Shown piece by piece: positions 11,260 through 50,556 of a stretch of 64,000 nucleotides of DNA. The stretch spans positions 28,954,001-29,018,000 of the forward strand of contig JAGIQG010000024.1 of NCBI GenBank assembly GCA_024679065.1, written 5' to 3'. This stretch comes from Sphyrna mokarran. Its lineage: Eukaryota. The position numbers were made by a program, and so were the translations under genes. Positions within the stretch are counted from its first letter, which is position 1; every line of letters begins with the position of its first letter. The notes beneath the pieces are model-generated. The model did no database searches and was not told where the DNA came from. It saw only the letters and a list, made by a program, of their open reading frames with translations.

Positions 11260-12368
11260 ATTAGATTTAGAGTAATGAGAAACAAATGTAGAGTAATCAA
11301 TATTTCAAGGTTGCAGGAATATACCAGCAGGCAGGAAGGTGGTTTGAAGTGTGTTGACTTCAACCCCATAGCATCAAGAATAAGGTGGGTGAACTTGCAG
11401 CAGTGGTGTTCCACAAGGATCTGTTTTGGGGCCACTGCTGTTTGTCATTTTTAGAAATGACGTGAATGGGTTAGTAATTTTCTGGATGACACTAAAGTTC
11501 GGTGGAGTTGTAGACAGTACTGAAGGATGTTGCAGGTTACAGAGAAACATAGATAAGCTACAGAGCTGGGCTGAGAGGCGGCAATTGGAGTTTAATGCGG
11601 AGAAGCATGAGGTGATTCACTTTAGAAGAAGTAACAGGATTACAGAGTACTGGGCTAATGGTAAGATACTTGGTAGTGTGGATGAACAGAGAGATCTCGG
11701 TGTCCATGTACACAGATCCCTGAAAGGTGGCACCCAAGTTGATAGGGTTGTTAAGAAGGGTACAGTGTGTTAGCTTCTATTGGTAGAGGAATTGAGTTTC
11801 AGAGCGATTAGATCAAGTTACAGCTGTACAAAACTTTGGTGCAGCCGTACTTGGAGTATTGTGTATAGTTCTGGTCGCTGCATATTGGAAGAATGTGGAA
11901 TCCTTGGAAAGGATGTAGAAGAGATTTACCAGAATGTTGCTTGGTGTAGTGGGATGGTCGTATGAGGAAATGCTAAGGGATGTGAGGTGGTTTTTGTTAG
12001 AGAGAAAAAGGAAGAGAGGTGACTTAACAGAGACATATAAGATGATCAGAGGATTAGATAGGATGGACAATGAGAATCTTTTTCCTCAGATGGTGATAGC
12101 TAGTGTGAGGAGACATGGCTTTAAATTGAGGGATGATAGATGTCAGAGGTGGGTTCTTTACTCAAGAGTAGAAAGGGTGTGGAATGCCCTACCTGCAAAA
12201 GTATTGGATTCGCCAATATTAAGGATGTTTAAATAGTCATTGGATAAACATATGGATTTTATTGGAACAGTGTAGATTAGATGGGCTTTAGATTGGTTTC
12301 ACAGGTCAGCACAACATCGAAGGCCGAAGGGCCTGTACTGCGCTGTAATATTTTATATTCTATGTTCA
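11260..12368 (+). mobile_element. CR1-clade LINE 3' fragment
   Basis: GPLLFVIF, LEFNAEK.EVIHF, RGDLTETYKM; tail ggccgaagggcctgtactg...tctatgtt. Confidence 0.88.
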
Positions 12369-14111: not shown

Positions 14112-14195
14112 CAAAATCGAAACTCAAGTTTGTTCACTGGAATGGAAACTGATCTGTTTCTTTTGGAATCAGGCCAGGTCTGCTGTATATAAAAA
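14112..14195 (+). promoter_or_regulatory. Gene A promoter: two ISRE-like elements and a TATA box
   Basis: AAAATCGAAACT (14113-14124) and GGAATGGAAACT (14139-14150), each one mismatch from GAAANNGAAACT; TATATAAAAA at 14186-14195; donor TTG|gtgaga at 14334/14335 suggests a first exon of about 14215-14334. Confidence 0.7.
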
Positions 14196-14498
14196 CCCAC
14201 ACTGCCGCCAGTTAGACACATACTGTTCATTTGTTTTTTTTTGTGTGTCTCTGATCACCAGCAGACCTCCAGCAGATTGCAGCAAAGTATTTCAATACTT
14301 TGATGAAGGATTTGTGAAGATTTATGAATAATTGGTGAGAGCAATGCACCAAATTTTTCAATTTACCTTTAACCTTCTTACTCCAGTTGAAGTGTCTGTT
14401 ATTTATGTTGCAGTGCTGTGTGTTACATTACTGAATGACGTTATTCTGAAATTTGAGTTTGTGGTTTTATATGCCCTGTTTGTGAATAGAATTCCCAC

Positions 14499-14535
14499 TC
14501 ACCTGACGAAGGAGCAGCACTCCGAAAGCTCGGGA
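14499..14535 (+). ncRNA. Minimal type I hammerhead ribozyme motif in a Penelope pLTR remnant (gene A intron 1, sense)
   Basis: cac-CTGACGA-a-GGAG(cagca)CTCC-GAAA-GC-TC-ggga: intact core, 4-bp stem II, palindromic AGCT stem III, stem I with one mismatch. Confidence 0.65.
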
Positions 14536-14917
14536 CGTTTGCTACCAAATAAACCTCTTGGACTTTAACCCAGTGTTGTGAGATTTCTTACTAAGAGAGG
14601 AGAGCCATTTAGCCAATGAGCTAAACCCCACTGAAGAATGCACTTGCAAAAATTCATTCTTTCAAAAGATATGGTGAGGTCAGGATATGCTGCCTATCCC
14701 TAATTGCCCTTAGTGGTTTACTAGATCACTTCAGAGGCAGCTCAGAGCCAGTCACATTGTTGTGGGTCACTCAAAAGACAAATTAGCTGAGGATGTCAGA
14801 TTTCCCTAAAGGCCATTGGTGAAACAAACTGGTTCTTATGACAATCCATGGTGGTTTTATGGTCACTCTTACTGATGCCAGCTTTCAATTCCAGGTTACA
14901 GTCACTTAACTGCAGCC

Positions 14918-14984
14918 ATGTTTCATGGAACATTCAGTTTCTTCATTACCTACCTGCTATTTTCAAGCACGTTTGCAACCACAG
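14918..14984 (+). CDS. IFI6: Gene A coding exon 1 (signal peptide)
   Basis: gccATG context, hydrophobic 22 aa, donor ACAG|gtgagt. Confidence 0.8.
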
Positions 14985-17900
14985 GTGAGTGGTTTCAATT
15001 CTTTGTCATGAATAACACATTATTACAATATAACTAAGCAATAAATACGTTAATTTTTCTACCTATCGATATTATAAATGTACAATTAGATACTAGACAA
15101 TTAGGTACTATCTGCCCGTCGAACTTTCTTACAATTCTGTGTCACACATCACTGGTGTTATATTTTTGGTGGGCAAATTTTTGTGTCATATTGGAACCTG
15201 ATATTGGATTTAAGTATCAGGTAATTCATAACATCACTACAGTGCAGAAGAGGCCATTCAGCCCATCAAGTTTGCACTGGCTGTCTGACAGAATAAATTA
15301 CCCAGGCCCTCTCTCCCACCCTATCCCTGCAACCTCAAACATTTACCATCTAACCATATAATCCATCTAACCTAATGTCTTGGGACACTAAGGGACAATT
15401 TAGCACCACCAATCCACCTAACTTGTATTTATTTGAACTGTGCAAGGAAGCTAGAACACCCAAAGGGAACACATGTAAACATGAGAAGAACATGCAAATT
15501 CTAAGCAGTCACCCAAGACTGGAATTGAATCCAGGTCCCTAGCACTGTGAGACAACAGTGCTAACCACTGTGCTGCCCCATGATGACACTGTTCTATCCT
15601 CATCTTGTTTTTGATTGCCATAGGAGTGGAAATGAATTGCCCACAATTTTATTTTGCCTGATTAGCTTGTTTCTTTTAAAAAAAATCTTTCTTTCCGATG
15701 CTCCACATGTGTGTGGGAGATTGTGCAGGATTTGGAGTATGTCATTTTGTTGCAATATATTTGAATATAAGCAATGGTTTTCTTCTAATCATTTTCTTAA
15801 TATGTTCATGCCTTTCCTTACAATTGGAACGATGAGTAATTTCTTAATCCCAGAATTCCAACAAGTAGACCCACATAAGAAACATGTGTTCTTTATGTGA
15901 GAAAATAGCCCTAATTAATTATTATTGTTTATTACTGTATAAGTAGACTTATGTTAACACTGCAATGAAGTTACTGTGAAAATCCCCTAGTCGCCACACT
16001 CTAGCGCCTGTTCGGATCCAGTGGAGGAGAATTTAGCATGGCCAATGCACCTAACCAGCACATTTTTTGGATTATGGGAGGAAACCAGAATACCTGGAGG
16101 AGACCCACGCAGACGTGGGCAGAATGTGCAGAGTCCGCACAGGCCAAAGCCAGTAATCGAACCCAGATCCCTGGCATTGTGAGGTAGCTGTGCTAACCAC
16201 TAATTGCATCTACTTCCCTTATTTTTGAATCACTTTACTTTCCTTATTCACCTATCCACTTACATTTTGAGTGTTGGTACAATTTATCTCTATCACTAAT
16301 TTTGGAAGTGAATTCCACAGCTTCACTCATTTGTACCATAAAACCTCACTTGCTCCTGCTTCTTAATCACTTACATTGAGATAGCAGCTAATGATAATAC
16401 TATATCTATTACCCTTTGTTATTGGTAACAGAAGGTTAGGAAAGGATTTGGCTCAGTTACAATGGATCAATAAAGAAATGCCTTGCTGACACTCACTGCC
16501 TGGGCTCAAGCACAAAGGTAAAGGCAGGTGGATAACATGTGAAATTCAAGGGTAAATTATCTGTGCTGCTGGCATACATCAGTAAGGTAAATCTTGGAAT
16601 GGTGTAGCCTTGATTTTGCATGGCAGTACAATTTTACCCAATCACGAGACAACATCAACCAAGAGATAGGAACAAAATAGAGGACTATGAGAAGATATAG
16701 TCATTTAAACCTTTTAAAAATCTTTCCTCTTCCTCAGATCTTCCTTCAGATGAAGATGACTCCTGTGGAATAATAGATGCGCTCCCGTACATTATCGTTG
16801 GTGGAGGTATGAACGTCAATTATATTCCCAACTCAGAATATAGCATCATAGAGTCCCTACAGTGAAGAAGGAGGCCATCTGACCCATCAAGTCTGCACTG
16901 ACCACAATTTCACCCAGGCTCTATCTCCATAATCCCATACATTTTCCTTAGTTAGTCCCCCTGACACTAAGGAGCAATTTAGTATGGCCATTCTACCTAA
17001 CGTACACATCTTTGAAGTGTGAGAAGAAACCAGATTTCTCACAGGAAACCCATTGCAGACACAGGAAGAATGTGTAAACTCCATATGAGGCATGACCAAA
17101 GCTGGGAATTGAACCTGGATCCCTGGCACTGTGAGGCAGCAGTGCTAACCACTACGCCACCATGCTATCCGCTTTGTCTCAATAATGTTGAGAATCCATA
17201 AATGTATAGATCATCCAACAAAGGGATTGGATTGAATAGTGAGCAGATAATGAGATAATAGTGCATTCTGAAATAATGAAAATAAATCACAGAACTACAG
17301 AACCATTGGATCCCTGCAGTGCAGAAGGAGACCATTCAACCCATTGAGTCTGTGCTGATGCTCCAAAAGAGCATCAAATCATACTATGCAACTTCAGTAT
17401 TTAACTTTTTCATATGAAAATCTAATGGACATAATACTTGTCAAAAAGCAACAATAGTGGTTGATGTATGTTGTATTTTTTTAAAGAGTGGAATATGTAT
17501 CTTTTTGTCTAAGTACACACTTCGGTGATTGACCTGCTCTCAGAGTACACACCCACTGTGCTTACGTGAATGAGCAATCTTGTTTCGTGCAGTTGCTATC
17601 AGTGTTTTTAGCTCCCGTTCAAGCGGCCCGTGAGATTTGCTTCTGTATAGCCTTCACAATCATGCTCCTGTGCGGAAATGTTATTTATTCGTCTTTTGGT
17701 ATAAAGCAAGACCAGGTGTCAAGAGCTTAGTGGTGGTGAACGCAGAACTGTCATCTCTTCTTATTCTGGCTGGTGTAAGTGAGAATTGGTTGGATACAGT
17801 CAAGCTCATTTTCAGGCTTGACTAGTGTAAGCAACACATGACTTCACAGCAGTAAGGTCACTACAGTTAAGAGGATGATTGCTTACCTTTTATGTGTATG

Positions 17901-20900
17901 ACTCCATCCCTTCATGGAAAATGGCTATAATATACACGCATATATGTATGTATTCCATTTACGTAAATGATGCAATTGAATTCTAACATTTTCTGCAGTA
18001 ATATTATTTTTGATTTTGATTTGATTTGACTTATTATTGTCACATGTATTAACATACAGTGAAAAGTATTGTTTCTTGCACGCTATACGGTGCACAATGA
18101 AACTTGTTGTGCTAAGCCTTATAGAGGAGATCATAGAATCCCTGCAGTGCAGAATGAAGCCATTTGACCCATCAAGCCTGCACTGTCTATAATCCCACCC
18201 AGGCTTTATTGCTGTGACCACATGTAATAACCCTCTTAATCTTGCTGAAATTCAGTGGCCATTGAATAATCCACCTAATCCACATATGTTTGGTGGTCCA
18301 CGACACGGAGGATAGCTGTGATGGAGTATCTAGCATTGAAGAGAATATTGAGAATGATGGCTTAAGTACTTTCTCAACTTCTTGCACACCTTTATCTTGC
18401 AATCTGGCACTATGAGCAAGTGGCTGATGGGATGACCACGAACTCTGGCTTTGTAGCCCTTGTTTAGCCTGTGCTTAACCTCATTAGCATGCTACAGCCC
18501 CATCTTGGCATTGCCACTGCTGCCTCCCTACTTCTTTCACTCTGTGTGTGCACAGGTCACCTACTTCTCTTCCTTCCTTACTTAAATCAGTAAGAAGCTT
18601 CCCAACACCAGGTTAAAGGCCAATACATTTATTTGGAATCACAAGATTTCGCAACACTGCTCCTTCATCAAGTCTGTGGAGAAGTGGCTCACGAGGGGAC
18701 ACAGCTTTAAATTAAGGGGTATGAGTTATAGGATGGATATCAGAGGTAGGTTCTTTACTCAAAGAGTGATTAGGGAGTGGAATGCCCTGCCTGCAGCTGT
18801 TGTAGATGCGCCAAGTTTGGTGGCGTTTAAGAGGTTAATTGATAAGTATATGGAAGAGAAGGGAATGGTTTAGTTTGGAGGGGCATTGCTTTTTATTTTG
18901 GTCGGCACAACATCGAAGGCCGAAGGGCCTGTTCTGTGCTGTAATGTTCTATGTTCTATGTTCTATGTTCTAAACATAGCTTATATAGACAGACATAACT
19001 ACAAGCTAATGGTTGGAATGTGTGTCTTTACAAATAATCGAGTCTTTACAGGTGCAGACAGTACCCATACTTTATTTAAATCAGGTAATACTTCATACCA
19101 AATTTGCAAACTCAACAAAAAAATTCCAGAAACATTCAAGAGTTCTATCAGACACTTTTTTATTAAAAAAATTGTCATAAGTTACCTTCTTGTCGTACTG
19201 ATAGGCACATATGGACATACATATGTATGTGCATATATACGTATACATATGTTTCAGGGCACTGCCTTAAAGTTCAACTTTTTCTACATGGTATGTTGGA
19301 AGGAATTCAATTCAGATGCTGGTGGAGTAAGATAATTACTCATTTTAGCCATATAGTGATACTTAAGAGAGGGCTAATAGATTCTTGTTAATAAATGGAG
19401 ATTTCCTCTGTGGTGTTTGATGAAAGGAATGTAAAGTGAGTTTAGATATCCAGGGCTCATGTGATAATGTGGTTAATGAGAGGAGCTGGTAAGTAGCAGA
19501 GAGAACAAAAAGCTTACTATTCAGTTTCTGCAGAGGTGTTTAAAGACAGAAGTCTGCAACCTGCTCTTAAAATCAAAATCTCTCTGGAAGCTTGAAGTTG
19601 TCAATGCATTTTATAGCATGTATGCATGAGATTGCTAATTGAGCATTTGGGTCTAAGAGGAATGTTGCTTATTTGGAACTGAATTGTGTCCTCTCATTTT
19701 TTTTTAACTATTGTTCAACTGTTAAAAGTATGACGTTCATTTTGTTAGAGTTATATTTGAACAGTGCTATGAATAAACCTTATTTTGATTTAAAAAAAAC
19801 ATTAATTTGTCAGCAAAATTATTCCTGGAGCGAAGCATCCCTTTCTCACATTTATGCTGAAATAGAAAAATTGTTGGGGTCTAGGCTGGCTTCATAACAT
19901 ACCTTAAAGTTAGGTCGAGGACCCTAACACTGTAATTTAGGTGCCTCCCCCTTTAATTTTATATGAACAAATACTGGGACTGAATTCTAAATTCCAGCAC
20001 TTTATCAATGATTTGGACTGTGTAACATGAGGATAACACTGCTTCTTAGCCTTCTGGCATTTGGAAAGGATTAGGGTGGCACGAAGATACTGTGGTTAGT
20101 ATTGAATTCAATTCTGGCCTTGGGTCATTGTCTGTGTGGAGTTTGTACCTGCTCCACATGTCTGCGTGGGTTTCCTCCGGGTGCTCAGGTTTTCTCCCAT
20201 GTTCCAAAGATGCGCCTGTTAGGATGATTGGCCATGCTAAGTTGGCCCTTAGTATCAGGGGATTAGCTAGGGTAAATGTATGGGGTTATGGAGATAGGGC
20301 TTAGCAGGGATTATGATCGGTGCAGACTTAATGGGTTGAATGGTCTCCCTCTGCATTGTATGGACTTTATGATTCGATGATTTCCATGTGGATACCATGT
20401 ATCCAAGCCTTATTGCATGTCCAAAACCACTGATGTCTCAGTGTGTCCCTGGAAAACAATGCTGGGGCTCAGTATCACTATCTTGTGTACCAATGGCATA
20501 AAGCACTAATATTTTAAAAACGTATATTTCCAAGTGTTATCATTTTAGCTGATTGACTGCTAACAATCAATGCTTTGAAAATATTTTCTTCTGTTTAGAT
20601 CAAATAATTTGCTGCGATTCTATGATAAATATGCATAAAACTTTGACATTATTGAGAAATGGTCAAGCACAATTGTATTGAATGCTGTACTATCTCTCCA
20701 TTGGACACAGGAGTAGTTATGTTGGGAGGTCCTGCAATTCTTGCACCTCTTGGATTTACCACAAAGGGGATAGCAGCGAAATCTATTGCGGCTACAATGA
20801 TGAAAATTGGTGCACATATGAATGGTGGAGGGTTGGCTGGAGGAGGTGTGGTGTCAACGCTACAAGCCCTTGGTAAGTTTTATTTATTCTTTAAGGGAAT

Positions 20901-21961
20901 GTGGGTGTCACTGGCTGGGCCAGCATTTATTGCCCTTCCTGTGGGTATTTAAGAATCAGCCATTTGCTATGGATCTGGAGTCACATGTAGGCCAGACCAG
21001 ATAAGGAGGGCAGATTTCCTTCCCTAAAGGACATTAGTGAACCAGGTGGGTTTTTATGACAATCAACAACGTTTTCATGGTCAACAAAAATTAAACGTTT
21101 AATTCCAGATATTTATTGAATCCTGCGGTGGGATTTGAACCCAGGTACCCAGAACTCTCTGGGTTACTAGAGTCTAACAATACCACACCACTACCTAAAG
21201 TAATATTATACTTTCTTTGTGTTAGTCCAACAATCTTCAATTGTACATCTGTTATTGTGATTTCACATTTCAGAATCACTTAAGTTTATTAATGTCACAT
21301 TAACACTGCAATGAAGTTACTATGGAAATCCTCTAGTTGCATACTCCAACACCTGTTTGGGTACACTGAAGGAGAATTTAGCATGGCTAAGGCACCTAAC
21401 CAGCATGTCATTTGGACTGTGGGAGAAACCCAGAGCACTTGGAGGAAACCCATGCAGTACAGACATGGGGAGAACGTGCAGACTCCACACAGGCAGTGAC
21501 CCAAGCTGGGAATCAAACCTGGGTGCCTGGTGTGTGAGGCAGCAGTGCTAACTACTGTACCATTTATGGTGCTGGAAGATTTGAAGAACTCCCAAAGGAA
21601 TTAACGTTTCTTATATTTTGTGGGTATATGTTATATATAATGTTATATATGTTATATACATATGTATATGTTTTATATATATATATGCTACTGAATTAAT
21701 GATTCAGAGGCCTGATCCCGCTATCAATAGTTCAATCAATGCTGGCTTTGCTAATGATGCCCAAATCCCATGGTGAATTAAGTAAATCATTAATTCTTTG
21801 AGGAAAATTATAAGTTGAACTGAATCAAGTGTTTTCTCTCAACAGGGGCAAAGGCTGGGACCACTGCTTTTGGTTGGCTTGGAGCTAAGGCTGGATATTA
21901 TTACCATCAGTATTTCGTGTGTAAAAAAAATAAAAAGTCAACCTCAAAAGATGCGCGTTAA
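14918..21961 (+). CDS. IFI6: Gene A: IFI6-like (ISG12/FAM14 family) protein with signal peptide, 137 aa; join(14918..14984,16738..16806,20711..20872,21846..21961)
   Basis: Four GT-AG exons, all phase 1, total 414 nt with no stop: MFHGTFSFFITYLLFSSTFATT-DLPSDEDDSCGIIDALPYIIVGG-GVVMLGGPAILAPLGFTTKGIAAKSIAATMMKIGAHMNGGGLAGGGVVSTLQAL-GAKAGTTAFGWLGAKAGYYYHQYFVCKKNKKSTSKDAR*. ISG12 motif GFT..GIAA.S.AA.MM...NGGG..GG.V..LQ. Recalled human IFI6 shares YLL.F, AL...VGGG and GY..H.Y. The symbol denotes IFI6-like; orthology is not tested. Confidence 0.85.
15230..17170 (-). mobile_element. Three V-SINEs in gene A introns (15230-15580, 15925-16200, 16845-17170)
   Basis: Head, V-domain and tail on the minus strand; exon 16738-16806 lies between the copies. 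Confidence 0.8.
16738..16806 (+). CDS. IFI6: Gene A coding exon 2
   Basis: Acceptor tctttcctcttcctcag|, donor GGAG|gtatga, 69 nt, phase 1-1. Confidence 0.85.
18680..18972 (+). mobile_element. CR1-clade LINE 3' end in gene A intron
   Basis: TRGHSFKL...FFTQRVIREWNALP; (TTCTATG)n tail. Confidence 0.88.
20075..20385 (+). mobile_element. V-SINE (tail a, CR1-like)
   Basis: V-domain and tail ...ggtgcagacttaatggg...gattcgatga. Confidence 0.85.
20711..20872 (+). CDS. IFI6: Gene A coding exon 3 (ISG12 motif)
   Basis: 162 nt, cacag| and CTTG|gtaagt; lies within ORF 20659..20952. Confidence 0.92.
21280..21565 (-). mobile_element. V-SINE (tail b)
   Basis: Full-length copy in the last intron of gene A. 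Confidence 0.85.
21846..21961 (+). CDS. IFI6: Gene A terminal coding exon
   Basis: Acceptor ttttctctcaacag|, reads GAKAG...DAR then TAA; AATAAA at 22083. Confidence 0.85.
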
Positions 21962-22082
21962 AGAGCACGAAAATGGCATTGTAGTCGAAGTCACACGATG
22001 TTATTATACATTTAAAAACTTGTAGATTTCAAATAGTTTGTATAGGTAAGAAGGTAAGGGTATAACTGGTCTACTTCTGATT

Positions 22083-22088
22083 AATAAA
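22083..22088 (+). terminator. Gene A polyadenylation signal
   Basis: AATAAA about 120 nt after the stop codon. Confidence 0.6.
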
Positions 22089-24122: not shown

Positions 24123-26185
24123 AAACTTGTTACATTTTATTTCTGGTAATGATAAGTTATGACAGTTCTGAATTTATCAAAGTTAATTACTTCACTTGGA
24201 AAAGAAAGGTGAATTATAGAAAATGTTACACAATACTTTGAATGCACAATTTAACATTAATAAAGTTCTTTTCTCTTCATGCTATGAAAGTGTTGCTGAT
24301 TTTATTTTATTTGCTATTCATTTTGGTGAACGCTTAGTGATATATACGGATAGCTGGGGAAACCAAGGTCAGATATGCGATCACATTCCAGGCTATTCAA
24401 ACCCACACAATGCTGACTCCAAATACTTCTCCTGACATTATGTCCTTGGGTAAAGTTCTTCAATTTGTACTACTTACATGGTTTATAAGATGATATGAGG
24501 TTGATTTTCATTCATCTTTAATAGGAATATAATCAAAATGGGGGTATGCTGTTTACAGCTCTCTTCCAACTGCCACCATTTTAATTTCTGCCCAGGCATA
24601 GGTGCCAAACTCCTGCCTGAAGCAGGTGCTTCATAAAAAATTTGGGGATTGATGTCCGATGACATTAAGTAGCACCTCAATGCCATTTGCATTCACATTA
24701 TTATGGTGCTCGCTGAGTACCAACAACTTACATAAATTTGTATTAGCTCTTTTAATTCCAAGGTTATTTAAAGCAGTGTTGTGAAACAAAATTTGATATT
24801 GAATTATGTGAAGAGATAACCAGATAACCAAAACCTTGGTCAAAGTAGCAAAGTGAGGTAGTGATTTGCAGGGACTCCCACAAGTTAGGACCAAGGCAGC
24901 TGAAAGCACTATCATCCATAGTGAAATAATTAAAGCTGGATGTATTCAAGAGATCAGGTATGGAGGAGTTGAAGGAGATTACAGCGATAGTGAGGAGTGA
25001 GGCCATGGTGGATTTTGGAAGAAAGAATGAGAGTTTTAAATTTGAGGAATTGTTTGGCGTATCTAGTCTATTTGAAAGGTGCTCACAGCCAAGTATCATA
25101 GAATCCCTATAGTGCAGAAGGAGGTTATTCAATTCATCAAGTCTGCACTGACACTAAACCCCCTGACACTAAGGGACAACTTAGCATGGCTAATCCACTC
25201 AACCTGCACATTTTTGGCCTGGGGGAGGAAACCGGAGCGTCCGGAGGAGACCTACGCAGACACTGTGAAAATGTGCAAACTCTACACTGTTGCCTGAAAC
25301 CGAAATTGAACCCGGATCCCTGGTGCAGTGCTAACCACTATGCAACACTGCTAACCATCATCAAATCATTGCCATTTGTCTGGACAGCTGAAAAATTTTC
25401 ATTGAGTATTTTCTTTTTGCTGAAAATAAGCTCTAATTGCAATTTTTTTTATTTCAAGCATTCCTCGGTGTTCCAGAAGTCAATTCAGAGAAACTCTCAA
25501 TAATTTCTGGCCTTTGCCTTATATAATTACTAAACAGTATCGGTGTGTCTTTTCCTTTAACTTTCACAAAATAGATTTTTTTAAATGTAATTGAAGCTTC
25601 TCTTAAAGCTTTACAAACTAAGGAACGTGAATGAAATGATTGAAAATTCCACATCAAAGGCAGATCTTCTTTTGGAATTAAGTTGGTTTGATGTACTTTC
25701 AATGGCTGGAGCTGGAAATCAACTGGGAAGCCTTCGCATGCCTAATCCTGCTCTTTTCCAAGCTTTCTTGCTCAATTCCAAGATTCAAAGATTGAAATAC
25801 ATTGAATGGATGCAGGTGTATTCAAATGCATGATAAGAAAAATGACATCTGACAAATTGCCAGTTACCAGCATTGCAGCAATGTTGGAAACATGGTATGC
25901 CAACATGTTCCTCTGGTGTTAATGACATGAAATATGTGGCATGATATCTTCCCATCGCTAATGTTTCACTTGAATGCTCTTACTGCAACACAGTTTCTAC
26001 TCACAGAGCCCAAGAATTCTGTTCTTTTAACCAATGGGCCAAGAGGATATCCTCCAATGCTGTTGTTGTCAAGGCCTGTAACAATGGTTTTCTTTCCTCT
26101 CCTGAGGGTAGGGTGCACATTGGAGCCAGAAATCACACAGGCACTTGCCAAAAATTTAAATAAGTCTGATCCCTGGGAATCAGAT

Positions 26186-29990: not shown

Positions 29991-32900
29991 TGTGTCTGTA
30001 TGTTTTTTTATCTGGGCCAGATGAGAATAGTGCAGCAGTTTCCTGATAACTTCAGCCGACTGCAGGAGGGGTGGAGGTGAGGAGTCAGGTAGTCAGTGGA
30101 AGATGGGTGATCAGTGGGGGTGGGGCAGTAGGGAGATCAGTAACAATGGTGATCAGGGGATTGGTTAGATGGTCTGTGGGCTGAGAGTGTTGTTGGGGAT
30201 GATGGGTTAGTCAGTGGTTACCTCAGAGATTATAGGGATAGTTTGAAGATCACGAGGGTAGTTGGAAAGGCAGGAGGCTAATCAGAAATCAAGATAATCT
30301 GGGGACTGGGAATAGTGACGGGCTTGAGAGGACAGTTGAGAAATAGGGTGGACGGGTTGTGGGAAGTGGCCAGGAAAGTATTTGGAGGTCCAATAAGAAT
30401 AGTGCATGTGGGGGATGCAACAGAGGCGGAGCTAACCAACCAAAGTTGATCATTTAAATTGGTGTTTCAAATCGTTCCCAGTGCAGTCCATGGGAAGCTA
30501 AAACTTGCTGGGAAGCTAGATGCAAATCTCGTCTTTGGGATAATTCTCCCCTCCCCTGTTCCCTCCGACTACCCCCCTCCCACTTCTCCTCCCCTTCTTA
30601 CAATCCCCCTGAGTGATGCTCTGGGTCATCTGACCCTGATATGAAGAATATATTGGGCTGAATTCCCCTGAACTGGGGTTAAATGCCCGCACTGGTTGGA
30701 AAACTTGAGTGTTCCCATTGCATTGGCAGTGTCTTTCAGGTAGAATTCATTCCTGAAAAATGCTAACAAGCTCATATCGAGAAACCTGCCAGCCAGCCCC
30801 GCTGTTCTGAGATTGGGCTATTGTTTTAAAAGATCCATGCTCGGAGCCACGTCCCCCTTTCCCCCACAAAAAATGAAATAGTGCTCCCCACCCCTCCCTC
30901 CCAACCCCAACCATCAGCCCCTCTCCTCCCCACCTCAGTGACCAGGGGTGTACCACCAATCCCTCATCAAAGAAGAGCATCCTCCCCTCATCCACAAATA
31001 ATAGGTCACCCCTCCCCACACCAGGCAGGCATAAGGGTAATTCAACCCGTCACTGAACACTCCCCCTCCCTTCAGTGGCATATTGGGCAGTGGCTTTAAT
31101 GGCAAAAGGCGAAGAACTGGTTGTGACGGCAGTGATGAAGTTTCACATTGAAAAGCTGTGAGAGAGAGACAGAGACAGAATGTTAAATAAAGGCTGAACT
31201 CTGAGGCAGCAAGGTAGCGGAGCTGTGTTCAGTTTTCAGTAATCACAATAAAGACTGTGTCTTTGAGGGTTAAATTGGGACAAAACTAACCCATGTTAAT
31301 TGCTGCTTTATTTTGTAACTGTAGTTTGGGAAATGGATTACATAATGCGTATCCATGGGTATGGGAAGATTGAGATAGAAATGAGTAGGTGTTATTGGTT
31401 AATGCTAGTTCTGTAATAGCTAATGTGATATATTGAAGTGTGCGTGCATAAAAAGTTATTGCGTAACTGTGCAACGGCAGAATTGAGATATTAACCTGTT
31501 TGATATCAGTTTTTGTATTTCTGTTCCTTAAGTATGTGAACAAAACTTGACATAAAGTTTTTGAAGGTAATCTCTCTAGAAGCAGTTTGATTTGATTTAT
31601 TATTGCTTCCGCTGGGTGCTCCTGTTTCCTCCCACAATCCAGAGATGTGCAGGTTAGGTTGATTGGCCATGCTCAATTGATCTTAGTGTCAGGGAGATTA
31701 GCAAGGTAAATGTGTGGGGTTAGGGGAATAGAGCCTGGGGAGAATCAGGTCATGTCATCTTCATGTCTGCATGGTGTGTCAGGGAAGGGGGAGGAGGTGA
31801 CCTGTGAATTTGAGGGGTGAGAGAAGCATGCCCTTCTTTTCTTGAGGATTTGGTGGTTCTCCTCTGAGTGTTTGGGCTGCAGCACACTATGTACCCATTC
31901 GTCGGTAGCGCCATGTAAAGCCCTTTGGGTACCGTTCCTATTGGCTGGGCGGGTAAATGGCAGGAGGCTGGTGAATGGCCTATCAAACCTGCAAATGCTA
32001 TTCAAATTGGCAGGTTTGCAATAACTATCAGCTTGCTGCCCACTCTGCCCGACTGGGGTTGGTGGGACTGGGCGGGAAATCCCAAGAGTCCTCGCCAATT
32101 AGGAATCTCCATTTTTCCCCGATACCCCACCCACCAGGGCGATGAGATTCTCACTTGCTGTCTGAAGAGAACAGAGGATCAGGCCCTTCATTAACAGCCC
32201 CTTACAATTAACATAGCTATGAACCCTTTATTCCACACAGCAGCGATGCTGATGATAATGCAGGTTATGGGCAGTACGGTGGCACAGTGGTTATCACTGC
32301 TGCCTCACAGCGCCAGGGATCTGGGTTCGATTCTCGGCTTTGGTCGCCAACTACATTGAGTTTGCACATTTTCCCAGTACCTGCGTCAGTTTCTTCAGGG
32401 TGGTTTTCTCCCACAGTCTGAAAGACGTACTGGTTAGGTGCATTGACCCGAACTGATGCCAGAGTATCGTGGCTAGATAGGGAGGCCAGACGTCCGACTT
32501 TAGGCCGAACAGACCGACTTTTGAGCACTCTGTCCATCGCTACCTCGAGCCGGATGTTAATTTGTCCTCTGTTTTTTTGGGTCTGACTGAAAAACTTACA
32601 TAAATTACCTCAGGTATACTTAAAACAGTGGGAACTGAAAACTATAACAACCGTTAACGCATTTTTATTATATGTAGTTGCCATTGTCAACTCTGCTGAT
32701 GAGCTACAGTGTACGAGTCACGTCAACACGTCAGAGAGGATCAGTCTGCCCAAGGCTTCAGTGTAGAATGGTTGACTTTCTTTGTTCTTGTTTCAAGCCC
32801 CTAAAGAAATGCCAAAAAGAAAGACTATATTTAACCATGAACGGGCCAAAGAATTTGGACTTACTGCTAAAAGCAGAAAAGATGACTTCCATGTTTTTTG

Positions 32901-34049
32901 TACACGATGCCGTTGTGATGTGGAGATTGTCAGCAAGGGAAAAAGTACAGTTGAATGACATGCTAGCACAGATAAACATAAAGTTAACACTCGCACTGCT
33001 AGTACGTCATCATTGTTATAATTTTTCTCCCCAGCTCGATCAACTCAAGATAACAAAATCTTGGCTGCCGAACTGTGTAAAGTATATCATGATGATGCTT
33101 CACAGCAGTCATACAGAAGAGTTGATTGTGGAGTAAAAGTTGACAAAGAAATATACAGTGACTCACTGATAGTGAAAAATATAACAAGTGGAAAAACTAA
33201 ACCAAAAGTTCTGTGTGAAAATATTCTGGCACCATATTCTGTCCAAAAGCATGTGGAGTATATCAAAAAACATGGCTTGTTCTTTTCAATAGCAAATGAT
33301 GCTTCAAACAAATGTGCAACAAACTGTTTCCCAATACTTCCGAGACGCTTTCATTTTGAGAAGGGAGTGCAATCTGTGTTACTTGACTTTTACAGTGATA
33401 ATAATGAATCATCAGAGGACATAACCAATCAGCTACTGGTTAAACTAGAGACATCTGAATAAAGTGCCTGCATACACTGCTGACAATGCAAGTGTAAACT
33501 GTGGAAAACACAACAGTGCTTACCAAAAACTGAAAACGGCTCAAAAGAACATTATTGCTGCAAATTGTCTGGCCCACATTTTGTACAATGCAAGAAGGTT
33601 TGCTACAGGAAAACTGGAAATTGATGTTGAAAATATTTTGCTCAAAGTGTACAACCATTTCAGCATCTCAGCTAAAAGAACAGCACAGCTAAAGGAATTC
33701 TGTGAATTCGTGGATGTTGATAATTGTAATCTGTTATGGCATGTTGTGACTAGATGTCTCTCTCTTTTGCCATCTATTGACAGAATAGAATTGCTGGGAA
33801 GTCCTAAAAAGTTATTTTCAGAATCTAGGTGAGGAGGAGTGTCCTCAGCTACTGTGAAAGTGCTTTGGAGATGAAGGGAATGCCTGCAGATCATCAGAGA
33901 TCTATTTCTTCTTCCTCAGTCATACTCTTAAATTGTTCTCAGACACTGTCGAAGTACTAGAAACCAAGTCATTCAGCACAATTTCAGTATTAAAGCTAAT
34001 GGCTGAACTGAAAAGCAAACTTGAAAGAAGAATAAAGGACTGTTTTTTG

Positions 34050-34110: not shown

Positions 34111-34437
34111 TGTTTTTTGCTCTGCAGTGAACACCAAGCTTAGCCAGCTTACCCTTGATGTGTCTAAGAAACGTGAAGCAAACTTCGTTGTCTTCTATGA
34201 AAGAGTCAGAACGTACTTAAGTTACAGGTGTGACTTCTCCGAAAACAGCTTTCGTAGCAAAGTATCAAAATTAAGCCTAATAAGTGTCATACATTTTGAG
34301 AATTCTGTGATGCAATCAAGGCCTGTAACCTTCAAGATATTGATATGGTGAATTATATGAAGACTAGGGGATTGTGGAGGCAATTCTCAATACTCCTGAG
34401 ATGATTAGATAGCCATAGTGAAGAACATTATCTCAAG

Positions 34438-35990
34438 TAAATGGATAAGTAGCTGGCTTGGTAATAGGAGACAGAGAGTAATAGTGGAAGGGTGTTTTTC
34501 TAGCTGGAGGTCGGTCACTAGTGGTGTGCCGCAGGGCTCGGTACTGGGACCTCTTCTATTTGTAATATATATAAATGACTTGGAAGAGGGAGTAAGCGGA
34601 GTGATCAGCAAGTTTGCAGACGATACAAAGATGGCTGGACTTGCGGATAGTGAGGAGCATTGTCAGGCGATGCAGCAGGACATAGATAGGCTGGTAGCTT
34701 GGGCAGACAGATGGCAGATGGAATTCAATCCTGGTAAATGTGAGGTGATGCATTTCGGGAGAAAGAATGTAGGGGGGAGGTATATGATAAAGGGTAGACC
34801 TATTAAGAGTATAGAAACGCAGAGGGACCTGGGGGTGCAGGTGAACAAGTCTCTGAAGGTGGCAGAGCAAGTGGAGAAGGTTGTGAAGAAAGCATATAGT
34901 ATGTTAGCCTTTATAGGAAGGGGTATAGAGTACAAGAGTTGGCCTTTAATATTGCAGTTGTATAAAACGTTGGTTAGACTTCATTTGGAATACTGTGTCC
35001 AGCTCTGGTCGCCCTACTACTGGAAGGATGTGGAGACTCTGGAGAGAGTGCAGAGGAGATTTACCAGGATACTGCCTGGTTTGGAAGGTCTGAGTTACGA
35101 GGAGAGGTTAGGCAAATTGGGACTGTTTTCCTTAAAAAGACGTAGACTTAAAGGAGATCTAATAGAGGTATACAAGATTGAGGGGTATAGATAGAGTAAA
35201 CAGGGTTAAGCTTTTTCCTAGGATGGACTCGAATAGCACGAGGGGTGATGGGCTTAGAGTGAGGGGGGTAAGGTATAATTTGGATGCTAGAGGGAGTTTT
35301 TTCACACGGAGGGTGGTGGGGGTATGGAATGCGCTGCCAAGTAAAGTGGCGGAGGCAGGTACTCTGGAGTTATTTAAGAAATACTTAGATGGGCACATGA
35401 ACAGAATGGGAATGGAGGGGTATAGAAAACTGATTTAAAATAGGGATCATGAGCCTTGGGAGTCCCTGGGAAGTGTGTAAATAGATGATGATATTGATGT
35501 ACTTGTTTTTATCCTACAGGTGCTTTGGTCCACCTTGTTGTCTAACGAGGGGCATACACACGATGGGTCGTGAGAGGGCTGCTCTTGGATTTTTTTCGAG
35601 AGTATCCTAGTGCTTCACGTCGTTAGTGTATGCTTGACCTGGACCATTTGATGGACAACACGACAGCTCAGTGACTATCGCTGTGCTGTGCAGATACATG
35701 GATTTGGGCCTGTGTCTGTGGGAGTTTGCACATTCTCCCCGTGCTTGCATGGGTTTTCTCCGGGTGCTCCGGTTTCCTCCCACATCCCAATGATGTGATC
35801 TTAGGCTAATTGGCAAAACAAATTCTCCCTAAATTGTCTCAAATTTGGTTTTTTAATCCATAGATCTATAAACATGGACAAGGATCACGGGTACAGGTGG
35901 GAACATTGGGGTGGCGGCGCGGGCTCGTTAGGCCGAAGGGCCTGTTTCCCATGCTGTTTTGTTCTTTGTTCTTTGTTTGTTCTTTGTTCT
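34438..35990 (+). mobile_element. 5'-truncated CR1-clade LINE (RT C-terminal half) plus a V-SINE-like segment, nested in the hAT
   Basis: ORF 34418..35194 GVPQGSVLGP, KFADD, LEYCVQLWSP, RRRLKGDLIEVYK; one frameshift; ends in a (TGTTCTT)n tail. Confidence 0.92.
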
Positions 35991-41529: not shown

Positions 41530-42925
41530 CCTCCTGCAGCAGATAGGGAAATGTGTTTCCATATTCCTAATGATATGCAGGTCCATATACTGTATATGAA
41601 GCCACAGGACATTGAAAGGATATTCAATGAATACTACTCGGGATTCTTCATTTCAGAAAAGGAGAAATTAGGTGCAGGATTCAGATAAAGGGACTCTGTG
41701 GAACTTGCACCACTTGACATGGGAAATGAAGAGTTACTGGACGGTTTGACAGGCTTAGAATTCCTACAATAGAGAAGGAGGCCATTCGGCCCATTGAGTC
41801 TGTATTGACCACAAATCAACCAGGCCCTATTCCCATAAGCCTGCTCATTTGCCCTGCTAATCCTCCTCACACTGATCAATTTAGCACAGCCAATCAACCT
41901 AACCTGCACATCTTTGAATGGTGGGGGAAACTGGAGCATCCAGAGGAAACCCATGCAGACACAGAGAATGACCCGAGGCCGGAATTGAACCTGGGTCCCT
42001 GGCGTGTTAGGCAGCAGTGCTAACCATTGTGCCAGCGTGCTGCCCATCATGGACAAAGCACCAGGCCTGGATGAATTGCATCCCAGGCTGCTGGGGGAGG
42101 TGAGGCAGGAAATTGCAGTAGCTCTGACACAAATTTTTTAATTTCTACCAGGCCACATGGCAAGTGCCAGAGGACTGAAAGACAGCTAATATCAGCAGCA
42201 AGGTGGCACAGTGGTTAGTACTGATGCCTCGCAGCTCAAAGACCTGGTTTGATTCCTGGCTTGTGTCACTGTCTGCACAGAGTCCGCACATTCTCCCTGT
42301 GTGTGTGGGTTTCCTCCAGGTACTCCAGTTTCCTCCCACAGTCCAAAAGACGTGCTGGTTAGCTGTACTGGACATCCTAAACTCTCCCTCAGAATACCTG
42401 AACAGGCATCGGAGTGTGGTCACTAGGGATTTTCACAGTAACTTCATTTCAGTGTTAATGTAAGCCTACTTGTGATTAATAAGAAGTAATGCGGTTCCAC
42501 TTCTCAAGAAGAGTGGTAGAGATGAATCAGAAAACTATAGACTTCATGTCAGCAATAGAGAAATTATTGGAGAAAATTCTGAAGGAGAGAATTAATTTCC
42601 ACTTAGATAAGGTTTGATTAGGGATGGTCAGTGTGGCTTTGTCAAAGGGAGATCATGCCTAACAAATTTGATAGAATTTTACAAAAATGTGATTGAATGT
42701 TTGGATGAGAGAAATGCAGTTGATGTGGATTTTAACAAAGCCTTTGACAAGATCGCACAGGAGAAACTGATTGAGAAGTTTGAAGCAAGTGGAATTCGGG
42801 GAACCTTGGCAAGATGGATCCAAAACTGGCTTAGTAATAGGACACAGTGTGGTAGTAGAAAGCTGTCTTAATGACTGGAGGCCAGTGTCCAGTAGCATAC
42901 CACAAGGTTCAAAACTGGCACCCTT
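41530..42925 (+). mobile_element. CR1-clade LINE RT N-terminal fragment interrupted by SINEs
   Basis: QCGFVKGRSCLTNLIEF...DFNKAFDK...WIQNWLSNR. Confidence 0.8.
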
Positions 42926-47799: not shown

Positions 47800-48270
47800 A
47801 GAGAGAGTTCAGAGGAGATTTACAAGGATGCTGCCTGGATTGGGAGGCAGGCCTTATGAAGATAGGTTGAGGAAGCTGGGACTCTTCTCACTGGAGAGAC
47901 GTAGGTTGAGAGGCGACCTGATAGAGGTTTATAAAATGTTGAGAGGAATAGATAGGGTGGACTCTCAGAGACTATTTCCCCGAGCTGAAATGGTCACTAC
48001 GAGAGGACACAGATTTAAGGTGCAGGGAAGCAAATACAAAGGAGATGTCAGGGGTAGGTTTTTCACTCAGAGGGTGGTGAGTGAATGGAACCGACTGCCA
48101 TCAGAGGTTGTTGAGGCAAACTCACTGGGATCTTTTAAGAGACTTCTGGATGAGTATATGGAAACGAATAGGATAGGGGGTTATAGATAGGTCTGTGGAT
48201 TGATAGATGTGATCGGCGCAACTTGTGGGTCAAAGGGTCTGTTTGTGCTGTATTGTTCTGTGTTCTATGA
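47800..48270 (+). mobile_element. Young CR1-clade LINE 3' end
   Basis: Intact 120-aa ORF 47828..48190 LFSLERRRLRGDLIEVYK...WNRLP. Confidence 0.92.
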
Positions 48271-48691: not shown

Positions 48692-48737
48692 ATGATGAAA
48701 ATGGTGATTGTAGGAGGAGCTACAGCTGTAACTGCAG
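48692..48737 (+). CDS. IFI27L2: Gene B first coding exon
   Basis: tttttcaattgcag| acceptor, ATG at 48692, donor GCAG|gtaagc. Confidence 0.8.
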
Positions 48738-50556
48738 GTAAGCTTTAGTCGGGCAAACAATCTGTATTTTTTTTAAAAGTAATGGTCAACAGAGTTCCCA
48801 GGAAGGCTGCTACTCAAATATGTCTAGTTCGTGTAGTGCCAGTTACTCAAATTGTGATAACGCACAACAGTTTTATAAAGAAAGCCAGATCCCCTACTGC
48901 ATTGCTTATGGGTAGTTGGAAGGTATCATCTCTTGAGTCTCAAGGTTAATGTGCAAATTCAGTCGGCAGTTCAGAAGGCAAATGCAATGTTAGTATTCAA
49001 GTCGAGCAGGCTAGAATACAAGAGCAGGGATGTGCTGGTTTGAAGTGTTGTGACAGAATTAGACTTACCTTACGATCAAAAAGAATTCTGACATGACACT
49101 ATTATATAGTTTGGGCTTTCGGCAGCATTGTTAAATTGTGGCACATTGGTTAGCACTGCTGCCTCACAACGCTAGGGACCAGGGTCTGATTGGTCACTGT
49201 CTGTGAAGGAATCTGCACATTCTCCCCTTGTCCGTGTGGGTTGCTGCCAGGTGCTCCAGTTTCCACCCACAGTCCGAAAGACATGCTAAATTCTCCCTCT
49301 GTGTGCCCAAAAAGGGCCGGAGTGTGGGGACTAGGGGATTTTCACAGTAACTTTGTTGCAGTGTTAATGTAAGCTGACTTATGGCACTAAGAAAATAAGT
49401 TTTAAAATGCCTGAATGAGACTACTTAATGTGAAAGCAATATCACTTGAACCCCAGGAGCTTAACATTCGGCCAACATATGCCATGTTTTGTCTTTCAGT
49501 TGGAGCTATCGTTGCTGCACCAGTGGTTCTGGGAGCAGTGGGATTTACCAGTGCTGGTATAGCACCTGGTTCCTATGCAGCAAGTATGATGTCTGCAGCT
49601 GCTATTGCCAATGGAGGGGGTGTAGCAGCTGGAAGTCTGGTGGCTGTACTGCAATCTGCTGGTAATGTTTAGTCGTGGCCATTTGTTTAGATTTAAATGA
49701 CTCAAACAGTTTGGGATTATATTCACTGGAGGGTGAGAGGGGATCTGACTGAGATGTATCAAATTCTAAAAGAGACCGATAGAGTGAATATAAACCACAT
49801 GTACCCTTTAACAGGGTAGTTTGAACAAAGAGGTCGCAAGTATAGGTTGAGAGGCGGTAAATTTAAAACTGAGATGAGGATGAACTACTTCTCACAGAGG
49901 GTGATAAATTTGTGGAAGTCACTGCCCCATAGTGCGGTGGAGTCTGAACCATTGAATGGTTTCAAGAAAGAAATAGATATATTTTGATTTTTAAAAAAAA
50001 AAAGGATTGAAGGGAACAGATGGGGGAGTGGATTTGAGACCAGGGAGAGATCAGCCATGATCTGATGAATGGTGGTTCGAAAGGCTGAATTTACTTCTTA
50101 TTTTCTTCTGCTCCTGATTCCTATGTTCCTATTAAAGCCACTCTGATAATGTTTGACTTCCTTGCATCCATGAATAGTGCTGAATAATTTTTATGTTTCG
50201 TCATTGTCTTGGAAGCTTCTTTCTGCTAAATGACATCTTTTGTAATAAGTGTCAGTCCGTTATATTTTGACATCAGCGATGGGCTAATGATACAGTGTTT
50301 GGCTTTATCGTAAATGGAAAAGAATGATCAAATGTCCAAATTTTGGTCTGGATTGTGTCTTTCCCCAGGATACTGTTTGGGTCTGGATGATAGGAAATGT
50401 TAATTGATCTCATTGTGTGCAATAAATTCACTTTTATATTTTTCCTTTCTCTCTAAAGGAGCTGCCGGGTTATCGATTGGTGCCAAAGCTGCTGTGGGAG
50501 CTTTAGGTGGTCTTGTAGGTTCGATCTGCAGTGCTAAAGCAGCCAGAAAAACATGA
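48692..50556 (+). CDS. IFI27L2: Gene B: IFI27-like (IFI27L2/ISG12-type) protein, 101 aa; join(48692..48737,49500..49661,50459..50556)
   Basis: Three GT-AG phase-1 exons, 306 nt: [101 protein letters not shown]. Near-consensus ISG12 motif. The ATG exon has an acceptor at 48670/48671, so an upstream exon exists but was not located. The symbol is family-level. Confidence 0.88.
49120..49402 (+). mobile_element. V-SINE (tail b) in gene B intron
   Basis: Head, V-domain and tail. Confidence 0.8.
49500..49661 (+). CDS. IFI27L2: Gene B ISG12-motif exon
   Basis: 162 nt, tgtctttcag| and GCTG|gtaatg. Confidence 0.93.
49690..50132 (+). mobile_element. CR1-clade LINE 3' end in gene B intron
   Basis: gaggggatctgactgagatgtatc..., tail ctcctgattcctatgttcct. 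Confidence 0.8.
50459..50556 (+). CDS. IFI27L2: Gene B terminal coding exon
   Basis: Long pyrimidine tract then aag|; GAAGLS motif; TGA; AATAAA at 50615. Confidence 0.9.

Follow-up and report, generated by a model that had tools for sequence, protein, structure and literature searches.

How old is the IFI6 branch of the FAM14 family? The question is raised by a stretch of 64,000 nucleotides of Sphyrna mokarran DNA (GenBank assembly GCA_024679065.1, contig JAGIQG010000024.1, positions 28,954,001 to 29,018,000 of the forward strand), referred to hereafter as the window. The window carries three FAM14 genes in tandem on the same strand. An initial annotation proposed that the first of them, gene A, has the architecture of IFI6, a gene usually treated as a late, mainly mammalian offshoot of the family. 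We compared gene A with IFI6 and IFI27-like proteins and with its two neighbours, genes B and C. The comparisons indicate that gene A is very probably an IFI6 orthologue, and support an IFI6 branch at least as old as the jawed-vertebrate ancestor.

Structure and product of gene A

Gene A was modelled with four coding exons (14918-14984, 16738-16806, 20711-20872 and 21846-21961, stop codon included). All three introns are GT-AG and of phase 1, and the spliced product is 137 residues long, with an intact reading frame. The four-exon coding sequence of the initial annotation was therefore borne out, and its junctions 14984/16738 and 16806/20711 are exact in the spliced model. The product aligned without gaps to a Mustelus protein (P0001, named IFI6-like by NCBI) over 137/137 residues with 84.7% identity, a full-length match that supports the exon model independently. 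The core exon scored 54.5 bits on Pfam PF06140 (cut-off 29.1), which places it in the FAM14/Ifi-6-16 family and agrees with the ISG12 motif noticed earlier; the AL...VGGG and GY..H.Y elements of the initial annotation are present as ALPYIIVGGG and GYYYHQY. The nearest relatives are proteins of Mustelus and Scyliorhinus, as expected of the cartilaginous-fish gene that had been proposed. Gene A is thus confirmed as a real FAM14-family gene.

All exons lie on the + strand. Exon 2 (14895-14984, its 5' edge putative) contains a short untranslated region, the ATG at 14918 and a predicted signal peptide (residues 1-22) that is 95% identical to Mustelus. Exon 3 (16738-16806) encodes an acidic linker with Cys32 and ALPY; this is the most IFI6-specific part of the protein, and 15/21 of its residues are identical to opossum IFI6. 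The 162-nt exon 4 (20711-20872) encodes the ISG12/Ifi-6-16 core. Exon 5 (21846-22088) encodes a Gly/Ala helix, GYYYHQY, Cys125 and a basic tail, with the stop codon at 21959-21961 and AATAAA at 22083-22088; 16/31 residues of this region are identical to tortoise IFI6. The N-terminus is a hydrophobic stretch with a KD9 of 1.97, compared with 2.91 in human IFI6, and the cleavable signal peptide is predicted from this hydropathy.

A TATA box at 14186-14193 (+) is preceded by two ISRE-like (interferon-stimulated response element) sites, at 14113-14124 and 14139-14150 (both +), each with one mismatch to the consensus. Single sites of this quality are common (13 in the window, 7.6 expected). Two such sites within 120 nt before the TATA box occurred in 2/5000 shuffles, and when the window was tiled in 120-nt stretches, 2/533 held a pair, one being the gene A promoter. 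At 25296-25313, 3 kb beyond gene A on its 3' side, is a second ISRE-like pair, beside which no gene was found. The putative non-coding exon 1 (14215-14334, +, start approximate) ends at a donor GT at 14335 (TTG/GTGAGA), and a weak match to a catshark gene model (7/10 residues) falls inside it, at 14247-14276. Of the ISRE/TATA promoter and separate first exon proposed initially, the TATA box and the imperfect ISRE-like pair were recovered, and the first exon is a prediction. Exon 1 as modelled contains two upstream ATGs, one opening a four-codon open reading frame (ORF) and the other an out-of-frame ORF that overlaps the main start; these could damp translation of gene A, or the exon 1 model could be off.

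Relationship of gene A to IFI6

Exon profiles were built from 24 bony-vertebrate IFI6 sequences, with no chondrichthyan in training, and a second profile from 11 placental sequences. On the bony-vertebrate profiles the gene A linker reached 40.4 bits and the tail 40.8; IFI27-like controls did not exceed 0.3 and 3.0 bits, respectively, and 0/300 shuffles scored as high. On the placental profile the linker still reached 18.1 bits (controls at most -1.1), and the tail only 6.8 bits. The linker exon ends in A-L-P/T-Y/F-x-x-V-G-G, and the tail has G-Y-x-x-H followed by a charged end, as in IFI6. Overall identity was 37-40% to genes B and C, compared with about 50% to monotreme, marsupial and most turtle IFI6.

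Not every feature first linked to IFI6 proved informative. The initial annotation had treated the signal peptide and the GY tail as IFI6 features among the human FAM14 genes. Gene C has a signal-like N-terminus too, relatives of gene C have a GY-like tail, and a shrimp FAM14 member has a putative signal peptide (PMC9144789). Both features were dropped as diagnostic, and the Cys/ALPY linker and H-x4-C tail were taken as the diagnostic IFI6 parts. The 162-nt core exon was likewise dropped as a sign of an IFI27-like gene, because a core of 54 residues is found in 21/25 non-placental rows and is the ancestral length; 3/3 marsupials and 61/63 placentals have 50 residues.

In isoform pairs of named mammal, platypus and chimaera proteins the breakpoints fall after the signal, at V-G-G-G and after Q-S-L, which are the three intron places of gene A. 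The proposed comparison with human IFI6 therefore gave the same three junctions, indirectly, from isoform breakpoints rather than tetrapod genomic DNA. Four coding exons with IFI6 intron positions are consistent with orthology; two of the three positions also occur in IFI27-like genes.

Trees were computed from 43 rows: 10 chondrichthyan and 24 bony-vertebrate IFI6 sequences, with 9 IFI27-like sequences as outgroup. Most unnamed IFI27-like matches were left out. The branch uniting the chondrichthyan and bony IFI6 rows received support of 94/94 from the core exon only (54 columns), 100/99 at full length, 99/96 from core plus tail with two long rows removed (23 bony rows), and 94/89 when five gene C relatives were added and three partial domains dropped. 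Shark proteins fell with lungfish, amphibian, turtle and mammal IFI6. In approximately unbiased (AU) tests both the full-length data (p=0.0097) and core plus tail (p=0.016) rejected a grouping of shark A, B and C. Three groupings involving gene C were also rejected: shark A with gene C and P0091 (p=8e-5), bony IFI6 with the C-type to the exclusion of sharks (p=0.015), and placental IFI6 with the C-type (p=0.027). Gene A neither groups with IFI27-like proteins nor lacks a linker exon, the two marks of the IFI27/ISG12 subfamily. The phylogeny that the initial annotation called for thus upheld its inference of orthology: gene A groups with tetrapod IFI6, away from the IFI27-like paralogues in the window, and the IFI6 branch would therefore date at least to the jawed-vertebrate ancestor.

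Database searches gave a congruent picture. A search with the gene A core exon returned two proteins among 88 candidates: the 137-residue IFI6-like protein of Mustelus and, under the name IFI27-like 2A, a protein of Pristiophorus. The Mustelus protein in turn gave 18 matches among 261 candidates, with an unnamed protein, echidna IFI6, a chimaera protein and platypus IFI6 ranked below the sharks. A profile search gave 352 matches among 8000 candidates, and the best 120 of 352 were listed. Among these, proteins of six turtles, two caecilians, monotremes, marsupials and many placentals bear the name IFI6, as does a UniRef entry of the chimaera; a lungfish protein is called IFI6-like and an axolotl isoform IFI27-like 2A. 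Ray-finned fishes, frogs, squamates and birds contributed no IFI6-type protein to the 120 listed, which does not show that they lack one. The idea that IFI6 is mainly mammalian is not true of the databases, where the name IFI6 is given to turtle and caecilian proteins, and IFI6-like to a protein of lungfish and to three of sharks. Lungfish, caecilians, turtles, monotremes and marsupials supply graded intermediates. The alignment forms a series from sharks to marsupials in which the linker is acidic and ends in C-G-x-x-x-A-L-P-Y, and the tail contains H-x4-C and lysines. An Atlas search returned Ifi-6-16 clusters only. The linker exon segment is missing from two proteins, P0012 (Rhincodon) and P0037 (Ambystoma isoform X2), which could reflect either an isoform that lacks Cys32 or gene models that skip the exon.

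Several observations weigh against orthology. On the core profile gene A (68 bits) was not separated from IFI27-like rows (56-73 bits), it was among the lowest scores on the placental core profile, and the core exon alone did not reject the shark-paralogue tree (p=0.124). The signal exon matched the bony IFI6 profile weakly (7.0 bits; gene C, 3.4). Human IFI6 preferred gene A to gene C narrowly (82.0 versus 75.5 bits), and the first 38 residues of gene C scored 44 against human IFI6 (0/2000 shuffles) and 23 against gene A (180/2000). The bony IFI6 set was gathered by searches seeded with shark sequences, the tree columns are few, the outgroup is thin (nine IFI27-like rows, with no mammalian IFI27, IFI27L1 or IFI27L2), and two of the three gene C hypotheses were framed after tree inspection. 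Gene A adjoins IFI27-like genes, unlike human IFI6, which has FGR and FAM76A as neighbours and is located away from the IFI27 cluster; no flanking gene was found beside the shark cluster in the scans reported below.

The most durable alternative is hidden paralogy, in which gene A and tetrapod IFI6 descend from two IFI6-type copies in the jawed ancestor through opposite losses. The IFI6 branch would then be as old or older, without one-to-one orthologues. The family duplicates readily, with three copies in the window, eight in zebrafish (10.1101/693333) and five in sea bass (PMC11899128). The base of the IFI6 clade is without resolution, and bony IFI6 did not form one side of a branch in any tree. 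We nevertheless consider this history improbable: each shark species has one A-type protein among the matches listed, and the full-length tree unites sharks and chimaera in a single starred clade, within which the chimaera branches first.

Still less probable, and largely refuted, is an origin of gene A by duplication of its IFI27-like neighbours within the shark lineage, followed by convergence on IFI6. The tandem arrangement, the indecisive core exon and the name IFI27-like protein 2A on five chondrichthyan orthologues would fit such an origin; the AU tests at full length and on core plus tail, the 15/21 linker residues identical to those of opossum and the lower identity to genes B and C do not. 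It is equally doubtful that gene C, rather than gene A, is the ancestor-type of placental IFI6, as its N-terminus, closer to human IFI6 than to gene A, and the acidic, placental-like tails of its relatives P0036 and P0096 might suggest, given the AU rejections (p=0.027 and 0.015), the starred nesting of placentals with marsupials and monotremes, and the four-residue core deletion that placentals share with marsupials, which retain the A-type cysteines.

Placental remodelling and proposed function

Comparison of the orthologues indicates that human IFI6 is not the original form of the protein. The linker cysteine is present in 21/25 named non-placental rows (the other four have a gap) and in 0/63 placental rows, and the tail cysteine in 25/25 and 0/63. 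Sharks, lungfish, turtles and monotremes have a basic tail and human an acidic one; the last 14 residues of the shark tail include six K/R, and the human tail has six D/E. A C-terminal di-lysine occurs in 8/13 non-placental bony-vertebrate IFI6 rows, in 0/10 chondrichthyan rows and in 0/11 placental rows. As both cysteines are kept from sharks to marsupials and are missing in 63/63 placentals, human IFI6 appears to be a remodelled form.

Tentatively, and with slightly less than even confidence, we suggest that the jawed-vertebrate ancestor, which lived roughly 450 million years ago, had one tandem cluster with IFI6, a gene C type and a gene B type, and that sharks have kept it. Targeting to the endoplasmic reticulum (ER) would be old, and the ancestral IFI6 would have had two cysteines and a basic tail; placentals would have lost both cysteines as the tail became acidic. 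If so, ER targeting is an old trait of the family and not an invention of IFI6, and the human anti-flavivirus protein is a rebuilt version of an older effector whose chemistry involved a disulphide or acylation. These placental-stem changes, in two residues and the tail, would offer a direct way of studying how IFI6 works.

IFI6 is a small membrane protein induced by interferon. Given orthology, an antiviral mechanism at the ER is the probable one for the gene A product. After infection, IRF/ISGF3 would bind the two ISRE-like sites and switch gene A on. We infer ER targeting: the N-terminal signal would direct entry, with cleavage near residue 20, where small residues at -3 and -1 conform to the signal cleavage rule. 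The acidic linker with Cys32 would be luminal, and the Gly/Ala-rich ISG12 helices would be embedded in the ER membrane. The lysine-rich tail is most likely cytosolic; this is proposed because basic segments tend to be cytosolic (the positive-inside rule) and because relatives carry a C-terminal di-lysine, an ER-retrieval signal. Cys125 might then be acylated, and dimers might be linked through Cys32. With both ends luminal, a Cys32-Cys125 disulphide might form instead. Like human IFI6, the shark protein would most likely hinder RNA viruses that bend ER membrane into replication organelles; the human protein is ER-localised, is assisted by BiP and prevents formation of flavivirus replication organelles (PMC8228428).

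A distinctly less likely reading, which competes with the ER mechanism and not with orthology, is that gene A has another role, as a mitochondrial or apoptosis regulator or a damper of RIG-I signalling. Mitochondrial, anti-apoptotic and RIG-I roles have been reported for human IFI6 (PMC6035266, PMC4526556, PMC9923010), and the two tails differ in charge, basic in shark and acidic in human. Against this, the order of a hydrophobic N-terminus and then a hydrophilic linker is conserved between shark and human, and the di-lysine recurs in the non-placental bony vertebrates, though not in chondrichthyans.

The gene cluster and comparison with known systems

Gene B (48692-50556, +) is an IFI27-like FAM14 paralogue of 101 residues (coding exons 48692-48737, 49500-49661 and 50459-50556), which has neither signal peptide nor linker; no promoter or first exon was located for it. 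Gene C (59579-62716, +) is a second signal-bearing type (coding exons 59579-59630, 60412-60438, 61442-61477 and 62555-62716) with two mini-exons of 27 and 36 nt. Its last exon was not found within the window. The gene C model was 82.6% identical to the unnamed protein P0091 over 92/92 residues. Five unnamed proteins are its relatives; some have acidic tails like placental IFI6, and two have a G/T-Y-A-A-K-K acidic tail. A CpG-rich patch at 55000-55480 is probably the gene C promoter and first exon. It contains two ISRE-like sites, one at 55185-55196 (-) and one, a tandem GAAAC, at 55223 (+), and near 55473 there is a donor-like site.

Pfam scans at curated cut-offs covered 132 ORFs upstream of gene A and 150 of the 171 ORFs between genes A and B (22-45 kb), reaching up to about 45 kb and exons no shorter than 38-45 codons. 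They revealed no gene other than FAM14 and transposon sequences: the only matches were three LINE-type (long interspersed nuclear element) reverse-transcriptase fragments (11393-11770, 34409-35191 and 42611-42868) and two sub-threshold chance matches. A motif and CpG scan for the first exon of a neighbour found none, and Rfam gave no match in the window. About 26% of the window is repeated within itself. An ORF at 47801-48190, outside the Pfam scans, resembles the LINE fragments, and three overlapping ORFs of 127-152 residues at 32678-33830 (+), without a Pfam match, look by eye like a decayed DNA-transposon gene.

The result is a useful re-dating of a known gene and not a new system. An analysis of interferon-stimulated gene evolution treated IFI6 and IFI27 as co-orthologues, duplicated late, of the eight isg12 genes that zebrafish carries in tandem, called ISG12 young, and placed the origin of type I interferon in early jawed vertebrates (10.1101/693333). 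Our analysis would place the IFI6/IFI27 split before the divergence of sharks from bony vertebrates, near that origin, rather than at a late duplication. By titles and abstract beginnings, in a literature coverage largely outside subscription papers, no description of a shark IFI6 or date for the split was found, and the main text of PMC5747502 mentions neither IFI6 nor IFI27. Novelty is partly anticipated and the gain moderate, because automatic database names already read IFI6 or IFI6-like for several of these proteins. What makes the finding of interest is the earlier date, the tandem arrangement with two further types, and the loss of both cysteines in placentals. The Cys/ALPY linker and H-x4-C tail offer a sequence test for inconsistently named FAM14 genes. 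Chicken 'IFI6' is probably among these: judged from its published description it is probably of the IFI27-like type, because it has 107 residues and three exons, on chromosome 2 (PMC10119460), and is less than 30% similar to mammal IFI6 (PMC10687481). As mice are without IFI6 (PMC5850085), natural orthologues are useful comparators.

Among known proteins, those closest to gene A are the chondrichthyan proteins of Mustelus, Carcharodon, Scyliorhinus, Heterodontus, Pristiophorus, Heptranchias, Stegostoma, Rhincodon and Callorhinchus, which form one clade with it (98/96) at 50-85% identity. They differ in name only, the same orthologue being IFI6-like in some species and IFI27-like 2A in others. 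IFI6 (G1P3, 6-16) of turtles, monotremes and marsupials shares with gene A the signal-like N-terminus, the linker ending C-G-x-x-x-A-L-P-Y, the H-x4-C and basic tail and about 50% identity over most of its length; the core has 54 residues in turtles and monotremes and 50 in marsupials. Sharks have M-K-I/V in the core where these proteins have M-S-W-S, and lack the C-terminal di-lysine. Human IFI6 has the same order of parts, the same three junctions (from isoform breakpoints) and 40.6% identity over 128 columns, but lacks both conserved cysteines, has a core four residues shorter and an acidic tail, and has its gene away from the IFI27 cluster; gene A, by contrast, has other FAM14 genes in tandem with it. 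IFI27/ISG12-like proteins (genes B and C, those of catfish, bird, gecko and mussel, and human IFI27L1, whose PDB entry 2LOQ matches the Mustelus core with E=2e-7) have the PF06140 core and flanking phase-1 introns in common with gene A, but by profile score have neither its Cys/ALPY linker nor its H-x4-C tail.

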